Assembly (NCBI GenBank): GCA_964016885.1
Contig: OZ024751.1
Location: forward strand, 47,988,001-48,052,000
Reading direction: 5' to 3'
Source of the DNA: Eledone cirrhosa
Lineage: Eukaryota
DNA: 64,000 bases
A model generated the notes under the pieces. It saw only the letters and a list, made by a program, of their open reading frames with translations, did no database searches and was not told the origin of the DNA. The position numbers and the translations under genes are program-made. Each line of letters begins with the position of its first letter. Positions within the stretch are counted from its first letter, which is position 1. Shown piece after piece: positions 1,451-62,632 of this stretch.

Positions 1451-2324
1451 GTGAAGTCATCAAAATATAAAGAAGGGGCAAAACAAATACTGCAAGGCAT
1501 TTTATTAGACAGATGACTTCTAATTTAAGTTACAAGGTAAACCACAATGTGTTGCCGGAATGGACAGGAGGAGGGGCAGGAGCAGTCATTGAAAATCAAA
1601 TTCTCAGTAGATGATTGGTATTTGAAATATTGATACTTATTGATTTAATACTCAATTATCATCAATTCAAGTTGCCAAGACAGAGTAGATAGAGACACGG
1701 GAATTGTCAGGAGAGACAGACAGACAGATGTACAGTAGATAGATTGACAGACAGACAGAAATAAATGAAGAATTGAATATATATATATATATATAGTATT
1801 GAATCGTCGTGGATTATGTGAGGGGCATATAATCTAGACATTACGCTCTCCGGACTGTGAAAATGGTGTTGTACACGAAAACCATAACATCGCTTTGCTA
1901 CACATTTCTAATATTTTTAATATTTATAATATTTCTCTACACACAAGCTTCTATAACATTCATATAAAAGATACATTACCAATACAACCCCCTTAATACT
2001 CTTGATTACCCGCTTAAAGTGCTTGTATTACATGTAACACCCTGCCGCACTATAATATTATATAAATAAGACATGTGCTTGCCAAACGTGTAACTATTGC
2101 ACACACTAACTGCTTCTGACTATCCTATCGCATTAATTTCATGTTGTATTTTAACTTTAATTTTAATTTTATCCTCTTTTGATATGACTGTAATCTTTAA
2201 ATGTATATTGCCATGCTAAATGTTATAATGGATGTCAACCCACCAAGCAACAATATATGCATATGTTTCTGTATGTCTCTTGGGTTGAAAAGGAGGTCAT
2301 GTATGTGATCATTCATTAATAAAT

Positions 2325-2371
2325 TGCTCCGAAGAATCCAAACCTCGGCTTGGGGGAAACAATTGTAAGCA
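2325..2371 (+). ncRNA. Minimal type I hammerhead ribozyme (CCGAAGA core variant)
   Basis: TGCT-CCGAAGA-stem II (TCCAA/TTGGG)-GAAA-CAATTG-TA-AGCA; palindromic helix III; inside a (TA)n-flanked element at ~1796-2410. Confidence 0.7.
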
Positions 2372-2659
2372 TATAAATGATTTGAACAGAACTTTGATTC
2401 TTATAACTTATATATATATATACTTAGGGTAAATATTGATGCAATTCAATTCAAGCACTCAACGTACTTTTTCCACATAGGAGTGACGGAGTAAATATCG
2501 AATAAGAAAAAGCAAAATGGTCAACTTCCTTCGGACATGCGCCTGCGCAGACCGGTGGGGGTGAATTGGTACTCACAGGGGAACGGATGAAGAACCCAAA
2601 AGTACACACTTCGTCCGTTCCCATGTCGATTCAACTTGGATTGCCTTGGAAACATAACT

Positions 2660-2735
2660 TGCTGTCTGATGATGTCACGACACTCGCACACAGAACAGTG
2701 TGGCCAGTGTCGTCATTGAAATATATATCACAGCA
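2660..2735 (+). ncRNA. Type I hammerhead ribozyme with long stem II
   Basis: TGCTGT-CTGATGA-(ACGACACT...AGTGTCGT)-GAAA-TATATA-TC-ACAGCA; 6-bp stem I. Confidence 0.8.
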
Positions 2736-3394
2736 TTATTATTAAAGGACTTGAACATCTGAAACTACTTCGCTTTTACTTATATATATATATATATATA
2801 TATATATATATATATATATACACACACACATTCTTCATTCCTAAATTCACCTGCAGTGGAATGAACATGACCATTGAGAAAATCACTGAAAACTATATAT
2901 ATATATATATATATATATATATTATATATTCAGACACACACACATATATATATATATATATATATATATATATACATACATATATATATTCATATATATA
3001 TACACATATATATATATATATTATATATTCAGACACACACATATATATATATATATATATATATATATATACATACATATATATATTCATATATATATAT
3101 ACACATATATATATACATTTATATATATATATATACGTTTACATATATATATATATATACATTTACATATATATATACATTTACATATATACATATATAT
3201 ATATATATATACATTTACATATATATATACATTTACATATATATATATATATATATACATTTACATATATTCAATTTGTTGGTAATTCAACAAATATAAA
3301 TGTGTATAACTGATTCAGCACTCGACAAGTTTTCTGGAGTATAATATACAATGATATTAAATAAATGGAAACTATATTTATAAAACCATATTTA

Positions 3395-3451
3395 TTCTAT
3401 TATATATATTTCAAGGGCACCAAAATTTTGGTACGCTTTCATCAGATAAAA
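3395..3451 (-). ncRNA. Type I hammerhead ribozyme
   Basis: Minus strand TTTTAT-CTGATGA-AAGCGTACCAAAA/TTTTGGTGCCCTT-GAAA-TATATA-TA-ATAGAA. Confidence 0.8.
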
Positions 3452-3617
3452 TACAAAGTGTGTTTTATAAATTTTGACATAACCAAGGAAAATACCTTAA
3501 CGGTTCAAGTTTTCCTTGGAAAACTTGAACTGTTAAGGTATATTGGTTATGTCAAAACTTGAACTGTTAAGATATATTTTCCTTGGTTATGTCAAAATTT
3601 ATAAAACACACTTTGTA

Positions 3618-59125: not shown

Positions 59126-59810
59126 TAGTTATACTTGGGGAGGGTCATATTTGTGTAATATTGCCAGAATTAATAACAGAACACACGGTAATCTAATTTA
59201 TTCGGTCCTCAATGTTGCTATTGACTGACCAACGGTCAAAAATACAGATACAATATAGACACAAACACATATATATAGTTTATCAAAGTTCTTTTGATGC
59301 ACATCTGCAACATCGTCAGTGGTGCTATTGTTTCCTCCCGTTGCATTGTATTTTCTACGTCATCTTTATATAGACTGTTTATATATTTGTTTATTTTTTT
59401 TTGTCTTCTTTGCGCATGCGTTAGCGTGTGTGTATAGTGTTTTGTTTGATGTGTGTTCGTGATTGGGTGACTGTGTATTGGTTAATGTATTCTATCTTTA
59501 CTAGTGTGTGTTTATATGTGTTTGTTGTTATTGTGCTTGTGTATGTATTTATTTATTTATCTATTTATTTATTTATTTATTTATTTATACTTCTCTTAGG
59601 TCAGTGTTGTTTGTTTGGGTGTTGTTATTCCATTCATTTTTTCTGTTTAGCCTTGGCCTTCTAAGTTCTATTTCACTGGCCTCTCTGATTTGTCTATCTG
59701 CTGGGTCATTTCTATGTTTAGATATTATTCTAATTTCTATGTTGTCTATGTTACCGTTGTGTTGTTGTCTGGCATGTTCGTACAGTACTGAAAACTATAA
59801 TTCCGTTATA
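59126..59810 (-). mobile_element. 3' fragment of a second PLE subfamily
   Basis: Minus strand SVLYEHARQQHNGNIDNIEIRIISKHRNDPADRQIREASEIELRRPRLNRKNEWNNN (homologous to the PLE C-terminus); degenerate hammerhead CTGACGA...AAAAGAAC; ends in ATGACCCTCCCCAAGTATAAC. Confidence 0.85.
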
Positions 59811-60279
59811 TATATATATAAAAGGAGCTACCACTGTGATGTGTGTATATGTATATATCAGGAGCTGCTGCTGTGATATATCGACAGTCGATCGACTTTC
59901 ATCAAATCGGACCGAGGAAACAATGCTTCCAATTGCTAATACTATCTATCGGTCGCAACTCCAGGTAGAAGGAGCAACGTGAAATAAAGTGTCTTGCTCA
60001 AGGACATAATGCATCGCCTGGTCCAGGAATCGAACTCACAACCTCAAGATTCTGAATCCAATTCTCTAACCACTCAGCCACACACTTCCACTGATATATA
60101 TATATATATATATATATATATATATATATATATATATATATATAAAGGTTTACATATATATATATATATAATTATGCTAATTGGGAGAGGAAACGGTATA
60201 TATTTTATCTGGTGATTCTATAGACATGTTTTATGATATATATATATATATATATATATATATATATATATATATATAT

Positions 60280-60718
60280 AAACGTTTCAATATGTGTAAT
60301 AAGGCCAAAACAATGCAGGTATGGACATAGAAAAAAGAATGCAATAGTAAAAGATATTGTTGAGAATTTGTCTTTCACCTTGAATTTATTTAAATGTCCT
60401 TAATTTTCGAGATAATATCTCTTCTTCGGAGGGAAGTAAAGGTCTCAAACCAGCGTCTTAAATCTCTAGCCAAGCCATGCTTGGCTAGAGATTTAAGACG
60501 CTGGTTTGAGACCTTTACTTCCCTCCGAAGAAGAGATATTATCTCGAAAATTAAGGACATTTAAATAAATTCAAGGTGAAAGACAAATTCTCAACAATAT
60601 CTTTTACTATTGCATTCTTTTTTCTATGTCCATACCTGCATTGTTTTGGCCTTATTACACATATTCAAACGCTTATACCTCATTACACAATGCTTCAAGT
60701 GAACTATAACCTCCTCCA
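60280..60718. mobile_element. Near-perfect palindromic hammerhead element in (TA)n
   Basis: Arms ~60281-60475 and ~60479-60672. Confidence 0.85.
60520..60558 (+). ncRNA. Minimal hammerhead (CCGAAGA variant; mirror copy ~60397-60434)
   Basis: TCCCT-CCGAAGA-A-GAGAT ATT ATCTC-GAAA-AT-TA-AGGA. Confidence 0.6.
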
Positions 60719-60819
60719 TATATATATATATATATATATATATATATATATATATATATATATAAGGAGCTATCACTGTGATATATATATATATATATGT
60801 GTATGTATATATATATATA

Positions 60820-61555
60820 ATCATCATCATCATCATCGTTTAACGTCCATCTTCCACGCTTGCATGGGTTTGGACGGGAGGTTTCCCACTTGAGGCAAGA
60901 TTTGTTGTCCTGCTCGTATAGGACTGTCTGGCGGGTTTTCTACAGCTGGATGCCCTTCCTAACACCAACCACGTTTACAGTGTGTACTGGGAGGTTTTTA
61001 CCGTGTTACCTACACGGCCACATTACAGCGTGGACTGTGTTTTTTTGTTGTGACATCTACACGACCTCATTTGTTTCGGACTGGATGTTGTGGTACCAAC
61101 ATAACTTCACATTTAAGGGGGTGGTGTGGATGGGGTGGGGGTAGGGGACGGGGGGGGGGGGGTATTTTGTTAGAGGTGCCTACTGACTGTAGGTTTCGCT
61201 TTGTACTTAGGCAAGGCGGGTCTTCTGTATGACTGTGTAGCGCCAAAGATCTCGGTCCAGTGAAATTGTCTTGGAGAGGTGTAAGTGTGTGAGGTCGGAA
61301 TTTATCAAGTCATCCCAGGTTTTTCTGGGTCTGCCTATTCCGTGGCTACCGTCTATTTTTATCGCCCTGCACTTTTTTATACAGCTGTCGTCTTTCATGC
61401 GCATCACGTGACCGTACCAACGTAGTCTTCTCTCGAGTAAACAACATATAATCCCTCTTATTCCTAATTTCTCCCTTAGTTCGTTAATGCTTTGCCGTTC
61501 ACGTATATTACTATTACACATCCAGCGGAGCATGCAAGCTTCGTTTCTCTCCAAT
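60820..61555 (-). mobile_element. RTE LINE 5'-truncated copy (sister subfamily)
   Basis: LERNEACMLRWMC...RRLRWYGHVMRM...; 3' UTR lacks the internal duplication seen at 56475. Confidence 0.9.
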
Positions 61556-62179
61556 ATATATATATATATATAAGGAGCTACCACTGTGATATATATATAT
61601 ATGTGTATATATATATATATATATATAAGGAACTACCACTGTGATATATATATATGTGTATATATATATATATATATATATATATATATATATATATATA
61701 AGGAGCTACCACTGTGATATATATATATATATATAAAGAGCTACCACTGTGATATATATATGTGTATATAAATGGATCTCTCACTTATTTACCACTGGGA
61801 CTTATGTTATATACGTGTATATGTAGGGTGTATAAAAGGTCTGTAACATAACTACTATTGTAACTTATATACATTTATATATGGTATATAAATATATACA
61901 TATATGTATATAAATATATACATATTTGAAACTTACATCTTCTATAAATATAATCATGGCCTCAGCCGGATGGCTGGAACAGGTAAAAGAGTATATATAT
62001 ATATATATATATATATATATATATATTTATTTGAAACTTACACCATATATAAATATATATATATATATAAATTAATAAAAACAATGAAATAAAAACAAAG
62101 AACAAATTCCTTATATTAAAAAATTCACCATTTTATATATATATATTTATATATATATATTTATTTATATATATATATT

Positions 62180-62632
62180 TATTGTTATACTTGGGGAGGG
62201 TCATATTGTTGTAATAAGATTGCCAGAAATAATAACAGAACACACTCACTGTTTGGTTGGTTTTCGCTTCTGTATCTTTTATATCTCCACAGTTAATTCA
62301 TTTGGTCCTCAATGTTTATCATTGACTGACAAACGGTCAATAATACAGATATAATATAGATATAAACACATATATATAGTCTAAGAAAGTTCTTTCGTTT
62401 CACATCTGCAACATCATCTGTGGTACTATTATCTTCCTCCTGTTGTATTGTATGTCTACGCCATTTTTCAAAAGAAAAAGATACAGAAGCGAAAACCAAC
62501 CCAAACCAAACAGTGAGTGTGTTCTGTTATTTCTGGCAATATTACAACAATATGACCCTCCCCAAGTATAACAATATTTGTTTCGACATACAATTTCATA
62601 TCAAAAACCTCGCAAAACGAATTCATCACCAT
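62180..62632. mobile_element. Fold-back fragment of the second PLE subfamily pseudo-LTR
   Basis: Arms ~62181-62278 and ~62475-62575; homologous to 59126-59370; degenerate hammerhead at ~62385-62428 (minus). Confidence 0.8.

Follow-up and report, generated by a model that had tools for sequence, protein, structure and literature searches.

The stretch examined here is a 64,000-nucleotide (nt) window of Eledone cirrhosa DNA (contig OZ024751.1 of GCA_964016885.1, an assembly of 3.0 Gb in 1,796 contigs; positions 47,988,001 to 48,052,000 of the forward strand). The window is 38% GC, with 199 (TA)n runs and many simple repeats, and it is dotted with islands that carry type I hammerhead ribozyme motifs. 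An earlier note on this DNA had described the islands as bounded by (TA)n, which proved correct, and had taken them to be 3' ends of Penelope-like elements (PLEs), retrozymes, or both. We consider it very probable that the islands derive from PLEs. Two features of their ends appear to be new, namely a covarying hairpin at the start of the tail, and a strict rule, followed by 67 of 67 fold-backs, whereby exactly one arm carries the tail; the element classes themselves are known.

Hammerhead motifs in the window

The hammerhead motifs in the window are real, whilst their self-cleavage is a prediction from sequence. Our final type I descriptor matched 16 times, against a mean of 0.08 (maximum 1) in 60 block-wise dinucleotide shuffles of the window. 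The first version of the descriptor was over-strict, and its stepwise relaxation gave 7, 10, 13 and 16 matches compared with 0.09, 0.05, 0.22 and 0.08 in shuffled sequence. Of the 18 motifs that the note had placed, 14 pass the final descriptor (Table 1) and four do not: the motif at 34729 passes the loosest set only, those at 60397 and 60520 have the core, stem II and GAAA with a stem I of only 3 bp, and the core of the one at 21346 is mutated. Among those that pass, the motif at 7874 begins at an inversion junction and has no native 5' strand of stem I. Two further motifs, at 55618 (minus) and 55711 (plus), pass without having been named before. Because many motifs are the paired arms of one fold-back, the 16 matches represent 10 insertions from nine families (labelled A, or F with a number); the inclusion of looser and variant motifs brings the total to ~13 families. 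Fold-back arms in the window reach 1,036 nt.

It is the fold that is conserved and not the sequence, as had been proposed. The 598 kb of flanking DNA hold 112 motifs of other families, which form 28 clusters. Helix III is a perfect palindrome in 68 of the 112, under a descriptor that demands one pair only, and 14 of 18 cluster representatives with even loops of 4-8 nt (counted by hand) have perfect palindromes, 12 of them different. The core elements CUGANGA, GAAA and UH occur in order together with stems I and II, weakly so in F11 and F6. Copies within families are 85-99% alike, and the evidence for conservation of the hammerhead is that across families. The predicted folds of the F1 (z 0.46), A (z -1.20) and F11 (z 0.01) hammerheads were non-significant, which counts against the overall reading. 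An Rfam scan of the window gave no hammerhead among the best 150 of 278 matches, nearly all of which were microRNA families driven by microsatellites. A lone hammerhead-like core with stem II and GAAA at 44390-44460 (minus), with no clear stem I and no (TA)n borders, is probably decayed or due to chance.

Coding parents and units without reading frames

To extend the families, the E. cirrhosa genome was searched with the open reading frame (ORF) of the window and with ten islands, and the best 11-29 other loci were read for each. The link to PLE coding sequence that the earlier note had envisaged was found in seven families, which reach Penelope-type coding sequence upstream. A, F1, F3, F7, F9, F11 and F12 are, as read from these extensions, 5'-truncated 3' ends (pseudo-long terminal repeats; pLTRs) of coding PLEs. 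Clades were placed on motifs alone, following Craig et al. (2021, PMC8557442); four of the seven would be Hydra-type and two Neptune-type, with F11 outside both assignments. Both reverse transcriptase (RT) and endonuclease were recovered for A and F11 (in a single ORF) and for F1 and F7 (in broken frames), whilst in F3, F9 and F12 the extension reached the endonuclease part.

Full copies of family A contain a 1279-residue frame that is flanked on both sides by a hammerhead-bearing pLTR, and which has a CX4CxxC linker, a CCHH endonuclease and an asparagine-rich insert. In the frame at L014:3823-7659, a long asparagine/histidine/threonine-rich insert lies ahead of the RT. All 73 scored genome matches are free of stops and protein identity is 99%, features by which the family is judged very young and intact. 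Its motifs fit Neptune, although Nematis would also be possible on motifs alone. F12 shares 52% identity with A over 54 residues at the endonuclease end, and its putative Neptune assignment is by that likeness only. The earlier note had proposed the 596-residue frame in the window as a helper, a role that it is not equipped to fill: it covers no more than roughly residues 682-1279 of 1279, and an inversion junction marks its start. This truncated, inverted ORF (30338-32128) is thus not the complete frame with a 5' pLTR that an intact helper would have. Furthermore, family A lacks the hairpin that the ORF-less families have in common.

In F1, F7, F9 and F3, another 0.8-1.3 kb of untranslated region (UTR) precedes the islands, and a GIY-YIG frame lies upstream of that. 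The translations of F1, F7 and F9 have a CxCx5C linker, no CCHH, and CxxC plus CxH near the C-terminus; for F3, the CxCx5C linker and the GIY-YIG part were read. The N-terminus of the F1 RT (locus L089) contains RWR and DKT motifs. By these motifs, with the RWK-type/DKT region read in F1, all four families would belong to the Hydra clade. The endonuclease frame of longer F1 copies stops ~940 nt upstream of the island, and L089 has two pLTRs at a spacing, and hence unit length, of 4202 nt. F1 therefore exceeds the Hydra tendency of "<3 kb", owing to its long 3' UTR. We rejected the idea that F1 is a fixed 620-nt element, since its copies extend at least 1,500 nt upstream. Upstream of F11 are an RT and a CCHH-type endonuclease (Pfam GIY-YIG, E 1.4e-5).

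F2 and F5, by contrast with these coding families, are ORF-less head-to-tail units that resemble retrozymes; that they have no autonomous copy with the same ends is a tentative view drawn from the best 19 loci per family and four longer stretches. The F2 unit is 1297 nt long, with three tandem copies in L180 whose cores are 1297 nt apart, and its longest ATG frame encodes 47 residues. The F5 unit measures 624-635 nt, with a longest ATG frame of 63 residues; its own 3' end precedes 12 of 19 copies, and the GAAA-helix III segment recurs in three successive units of L181. A tblastn match to F5 (E 0.042, 21 residues) was weak and was taken as chance, and a search of sequencing runs with F5 gave no RNA run among those listed.

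These units raise the possibility that most islands are non-autonomous retrozymes, or mini-elements resembling miniature inverted-repeat transposable elements (MITEs), which would have a fixed length, form circular RNAs by their own hammerheads and use the 596-residue protein as helper. The ORF-less head-to-tail arrangement of F2 and F5 is in line with that idea, as are the monomeric F5 hammerhead, whose fold has a stable helix III (z -2.97), and the mostly short copies of F6 and F10. Against it, seven families continue upstream into coding sequence and have variable 5' ends, and the window ORF is truncated and comes from a family without the F2/F5 hairpin. We regard this explanation as quite unlikely. 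What stands of the earlier view is that many PLE lineages, and some retrozymes, lie in (TA)n; that they are mostly non-autonomous mini-elements does not, since the majority of the islands with a resolved origin are truncated remains of autonomous families.

Two points count against the main reading. Support from Pfam is thin: it returned nothing for the 1279-residue frame or for the F7 endonuclease piece, and it did not assign the F1 RT piece to any RT family. No parent was reached for F4, with no ORF in 900 nt read upstream, and upstream extension gave neither ORF nor parent for F10 (~110 nt read) or F6. A protein search with the F7 endonuclease piece found three relatives at 28-31% identity, without clade names. 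The 1,500 nt upstream of F4 that L229 and L230 share was discarded as a duplicated locus and not element sequence.

Two more families complete the set. In F14, which the earlier note had not named, the hammerhead core is of the U3-A8 variant type and helix III is a CCGG palindrome; the family is represented by 8 arms in the sequence examined. F13 is (TA)n-bounded and often folded back, with the same bulged hairpin as described below (at 6190, 23823, 29602 and 48559); the copies seen have no hammerhead core and have instead a GC-rich hairpin block, possibly another structured RNA.

Insertion ends, tail hairpin and fold-backs

Tail ends of nine families, located with exact anchors, adjoin (TA)n in 160 of 196 cases, a count in which overlapping loci may appear twice, compared with 718 of 17,658 random positions. 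This agrees with the insertion in (TA)n put forward in the earlier note. Of 36 F5 ends, 32 lie at (TA)n and the others run on into the next unit, and F6 ends more often at (CA)n. The borders might instead consist of TA repeats carried by the elements and expanded by slippage, with no preference for the target. In favor of that, the first end site is TA-like within the element in F1, F3, F5, F9 and A, and the F5 unit junction carries a TA run. However, the tail ends of F7, F9, F10 and F11 are not TA-like and yet adjoin (TA)n, elements are nested in longer simple repeats, and a (TA)n preference has been published for Hydra and Neptune elements (PMC8557442). Slippage as the source of the borders is therefore highly improbable.

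The insertions have two fixed end sites per family. In the window copies of F1, F2, F3, F4, F7, F9 and F10, the first site is 37-66 nt beyond the predicted cut; in family A the distance is 161 nt, and the initial codons of the frame fall within the ends. From there, a tail of ~45-170 nt extends to the second site, which in the Hydra-type families and F2, F4 and F10 lies ~100-230 nt past the predicted cut. As the ends lie beyond the cut, the template must have continued across the hammerhead, either uncut or re-ligated, to reach the start of the following unit.

The tails of F1, F2, F3, F4, F6, F7, F9 and F10 start with a hairpin of the form RCTC-NNN-loop-NNN-TN-GAGY, and the same bulged hairpin is present at the F5 unit junction, making nine families, both coding and ORF-less. 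There are 11 such hairpins in the window versus 1.05 in shuffled sequence, and in the flanks the hairpin follows 21 of 89 hammerheads downstream, compared with 6 upstream and 4 antisense. When sequence was the sole criterion for choosing hairpins in the nine families, base pairing was preserved at 296 of 309 inner pairs and at all 103 outer ones; these counts come from related copies, and the independent evidence is the nine families. Covariation is seen in seven different inner triplets, and in F1 and F10 an A-U pair is replaced by G-C. The hairpin is absent from F11 (0 of 18) and from A. Judged from its sequence and position, it rather probably serves as an RT recognition signal in Hydra-type families. 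Long interspersed elements (LINEs) use a 3' stem-loop, which short interspersed elements (SINEs) borrow, and a loading signal of this kind would be analogous.

Among 160 loci of eight families, we counted 67 fold-backs (one duplicate locus was dropped and two pairs of identical geometry were kept), and all 67 consist of one arm with a tail and one short arm. By eye, the nine fold-backs in the window (A, F2, F3, F4, F7, F9, F10, F11, F12) obey the same rule. The tail arm is the longer in 17 and the short arm in 21 (by up to ~1,680 nt), whilst in the other 29 the arm lengths differ by no more than 15 nt; four fold-backs have a partial tail. The arms of 49 fold-backs share 19 non-majority variants, as against 1.8 expected for unrelated arms.

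The islands are, in our judgment, likely to be insertion products of many (TA)n-targeting PLE families that arose as follows. A GIY-YIG endonuclease would cut both strands of the self-complementary (TA)n, and the two 3' ends would prime reverse transcription, each at its own start site and both probably on the same RNA. The resulting cDNAs would stop early and be joined head to head, which would yield a fold-back with a tail on exactly one arm. The RT of Hydra-type elements would recognize the bulged hairpin at the first start site. Since F2 and F5 have kept the hairpin, they would be mobilized in trans by Hydra-type enzymes, as probably would F4, F6 and F10. The minimal hammerheads, with their palindromic helix III, would cut mainly as dimers in multimeric source transcripts (PMC4209133), and in most genomic stubs they would be mere passengers. 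Twin priming from both cut ends, which we favor with some reservation, would account for the one-tail rule, for the shared variants, and for the equal-length class, in which both enzymes would have stopped at the same place. In vitro work on a Poseidon element has demonstrated that both strands are cut and that RT initiates at two sites, which delimit the tail; hammerheads were dispensable for insertion in vitro (PMC11167929).

Other observations speak against twin priming. The same in vitro study found no difference in start site between the strands, and so does not predict a strict one-each rule (PMC11167929). The shared variants are concentrated in F1 (9 of 19), with a weak excess in F4, F7 and F10, and the similarity of the arms could stem from gene conversion instead. 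Moreover, the loci were taken from the top BLAST matches of a single window arm, which biases them towards young copies and a longer plus arm.

Fold-backs could alternatively form by self-priming, as proposed for rotifer Penelope elements (PMC3846280): a cDNA or antisense template would fold back and copy itself, and the second arm would lose the tail upon being linked to (TA)n through a TA-like site in its interior. The equal 5' extent of 29 of 67 fold-backs, the many junctions that are near-perfect hairpins and the private variants shared by the arms are what such copying would produce. However, self-copying from a cDNA initiated at the tail cannot yield a tail arm shorter than the other, and in four fold-backs the tail arm holds only part of a tail. 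The 21 cases in which the tail-less arm is longer exclude self-priming as the only route, and we think it an unlikely explanation overall. The formation of tandem and inverted PLE copies is described as an open question (PMC8557442, PMC11167929), and an end rule with 67 of 67 agreement, in which either arm may be the longer, constrains models of it.

Two exon-like frames of a BAR-domain host gene (Pfam BAR), which we take to be endophilin-like, lie on the minus strand near 13533-13673 and 15225-15344, and the window is therefore at least partly intronic. Islands between and around these exons would sit in introns of the gene. The fold-backs of F3, F4, F7, A, F9, F10 and F11 (Table 1) would form long RNA duplexes in the host transcript; such a duplex would bury the ribozyme and could serve as a substrate for adenosine-to-inosine editing, of which cephalopods make extensive use. 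Of the hammerheads on the strand of the host gene, most lie within fold-backs, although the numbers are small.

Genome-wide abundance and known systems

A tight pattern for F3 and F4 has 15,155 exact matches in the genome, compared with 7 for a reversed control. This pattern covers 7 of the 112 flank motifs, and scaling on that basis gives an estimate of ~2.4 x 10^5 motifs (1.2-6 x 10^5 with the Poisson error on 7). Its density is about twice the genome mean in the flanks and several times that mean in the window. Four preset 10-kb stretches contained 5, 0, 0 and 0 motifs, a sample too small by itself; two of them are pure satellite arrays, with no (TA)n run and no hammerhead. The very large ribozyme population foreseen in the earlier note is thus upheld, whereas its figure of one ribozyme per 3 kb gives way to a genome-wide estimate of one per 5-25 kb. 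Published counts, made with other descriptors, are ~2,000 minimal motifs in Schistosoma, 4,000 in coelacanth and ~9,000 in Xenopus (PMC4209133), and up to 120,000 hammerheads in axolotl (a section title in PMC7229834). Our most inclusive picture, which joins a dimeric RT-endonuclease, the hairpin as loading signal, ORF-less riders, and a genome with a few hundred thousand hammerheads, is a tentative one; it includes a load above the 120,000 of axolotl, whose genome is far larger, with many of the hammerheads locked in perfect hairpins within introns.

Much of what is described here has been published, including hammerheads in pLTRs, (TA)n targeting, inversion, tails and a Hydra family in octopus. 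The minimal PLE hammerheads of Cervera and De la Pena (2014, PMC4209133) are likewise type I motifs in pLTRs with a short helix I, an unpaired base at the 5' end of stem II and a palindromic helix III; they too form many divergent families per genome, occur mostly as single motifs from truncated PLEs or as opposite-strand pairs 100-700 bp apart, and include the U3-A8 variant. Their numbers are in the thousands, compared with the 1.2-6 x 10^5 estimated here with a different descriptor. Members of the Hydra clade, among them Hydra-1_Obim of Octopus bimaculoides (PMC8557442, File S1), resemble our Hydra-type families in their RWK-type and DKT motifs, CxCx5C linker, lack of CCHH, CxxC plus CxH and hammerheads, and in (TA)n insertion, 5' truncation and inversion. 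They differ in that at least four coding families share one 64-kb window here, and in that F1 is 4.2 kb long with a 1.55-kb 3' UTR, whereas the described families are mostly <3 kb. Furthermore, the parts of that paper covered mention neither a tail hairpin that is conserved nor dependants without an ORF, such as F2 and F5 would be.

Family A shares with Neptune-type PLEs a CX2-5CxxC linker, a CCHH endonuclease and a (TA)n bias, and with rotifer Penelope elements (Arkhipova et al., 2013, PMC3846280) an asparagine-rich insert and a pLTR that includes the first ORF codons. The rotifer elements also have a tail on one of their inverted pLTRs; there the observation is qualitative and read as self-priming, whereas here it is counted, with either arm the longer. 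The Poseidon element PAc of green anole (Frangieh et al., 2024, PMC11167929) has internal RT initiation downstream of the hammerhead, two sites bounding the tail, an AT-rich target cut on both strands, a stem-loop in the start region and an uncut RNA template, all of which we infer here from sequence. PAc belongs to another clade, the tails here are ~45-170 nt, and strict pairing of start sites across arms was not seen in vitro.

F2 and F5 resemble animal non-LTR retrozymes (Cervera and De la Pena, 2020, PMC7229834) in lacking an ORF, in their low GC content and in their head-to-tail arrangement, with one type I hammerhead per unit, and are related in kind to PLE pLTRs. The units differ in length, being 51-972 nt in a retrozyme survey (Li, Clavereau and Pollet, 2026, 10.64898/2026.07.22.740005) and 630 and 1297 nt here. 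F2 and F5 also differ in being dispersed monomers or short tandems in (TA)n and in sharing a cis-hairpin that points to a specific helper clade. In Octopus vulgaris, 31 recently active Penelope-like families have been reported, in a paper whose main text is without the word 'ribozyme' (PMC13282606). Neither the hairpin, nor a counted one-tail rule, nor a hammerhead abundance for octopus was found in the literature searched, a scope that stops short of Repbase, Arkhipova 2006 and supplementary alignments, which may hold the families or the motif.

The value of these findings is mechanistic, and the class of element is no discovery. The covarying hairpin offers a defined cis-element as well as a concrete connection of animal retrozymes with a single PLE clade, and with its young, intact family A and very large ribozyme load, the genome is a good source of test material. 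Repeat annotation that called such stubs SINEs, MITEs or unknown would presumably miss them.

Table 1. Positions in the window of hammerheads, Penelope-like islands and a dispersed repeat
Feature	Position (strand)	Details
Named hammerheads passing the final descriptor, first half	2325, 2660, 3393 (-), 3616, 7733 (-), 7874, 17774	
Named hammerheads passing the final descriptor, second half	21654 (-), 21778, 29996 (-), 32925, 34362 (-), 34539, 53241 (-)	
F1, Hydra-type	1796..2408 (+)	last ~610 nt of ~1.55-kb 3' UTR/pLTR
F1 hammerhead	2325-2371 (+)	predicted cut after 2367
F2, ORF-less element 3' end	2423..2780 (+)	hammerhead 2660-2735
F2 inverted tail	2423-2516	bulged hairpin 2457-2492 (minus)
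F3, Hydra-type 3' end, fold-back	3258..3720	hammerheads 3393-3453 (-), 3616-3676 (+)
F3 tail and hairpin	3320-3340 (hairpin)	minus arm only
F4 fold-back	7583..7989	hammerhead 7733-7787 (-), incomplete copy 7885-7930 (+)
F4 tail and hairpin	7636-7675 (hairpin)	minus arm
F5, partial head-to-tail tandem, ~630-nt ORF-less unit	17203..18101 (+)	hammerhead 17774-17855, long helix III
F5 hairpin	17485-17506	directly after internal TA run
F5 decayed relative	47878-48181	
F6, decayed short fold-back	16196..16380	hairpin 16319-16337
F6 further copies	15721-15815, 21333-21393 (-), 34728-34868 (+), 49440-49575	
F6 weak hammerhead	34733-34777 (+)	in copy 34728-34868
F7, Hydra-type 3' end	21592..22109	near-perfect fold-back, 176-nt arms; hammerheads 21654-21759 (-), 21778-21883 (+)
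F7 tail and hairpin	21947-22015 (hairpin)	166-nt tail, plus arm
F9, Hydra-type 3' end, fold-back	34233..34660	hammerheads 34362-34432 (-), 34539-34609 (+)
F9 tail and hairpin	34287-34311 (hairpin)	minus arm
F10 fold-back	55594..55869	hammerheads 55618-55687 (-), 55711-55776 (+); 66-nt tail on plus arm
F11, coding PLE, CCHH-type endonuclease	60277..60717	near-perfect fold-back, 199-nt arms
F11 minimal hammerheads	near 60397-60436 (-), 60518-60557 (+)	~45-nt tail on plus arm, no hairpin
F12, relative of family A	59128..59806 (-)	decayed 3' end, hammerhead broken; same-family fold-back 62180-62630
F13 copies	6157-6243, 8011-8135, 23700-23894, 29554-29743, 48513-48733	
F14 fold-back, U3-A8 core variant hammerhead	39541..39845	about 39746-39779 (+), 39672-39708 (-)
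Family A, Neptune-type, 5'-truncated, inverted	29780..33124	minus arm 29780-32092: RT-to-GIY-YIG part of ORF, tail
Family A plus arm	32093-33124	exact inverted copy of minus arm
Family A hammerheads	29996-30040 (-), 32925-32969 (+)	
Second, shorter family A copy	53021..53981 (-)	endonuclease end, 3' UTR, tail; hammerhead 53241-53285
tRNA-like repeat, related copies	7441-7543, 19324-19486, 28981-29117, 39270-39428, 59971-60091	

Other repeats accompany the islands. The sequence at 16020-16165 belongs to a dispersed, tRNA-like family (weak Rfam tRNA match at 16095-16158) that often adjoins (TA)n and is probably a SINE. On the minus strand, 56978-59076 encodes a LINE-type RT with a PHD finger inside the RT domain (Pfam RVT_1 and PHD), presumably RTE-like, with fragments at 23276-23400 and 61207-61560. 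Related LINE-type 3' ends, terminating in short trinucleotide repeats, are scattered across the window.

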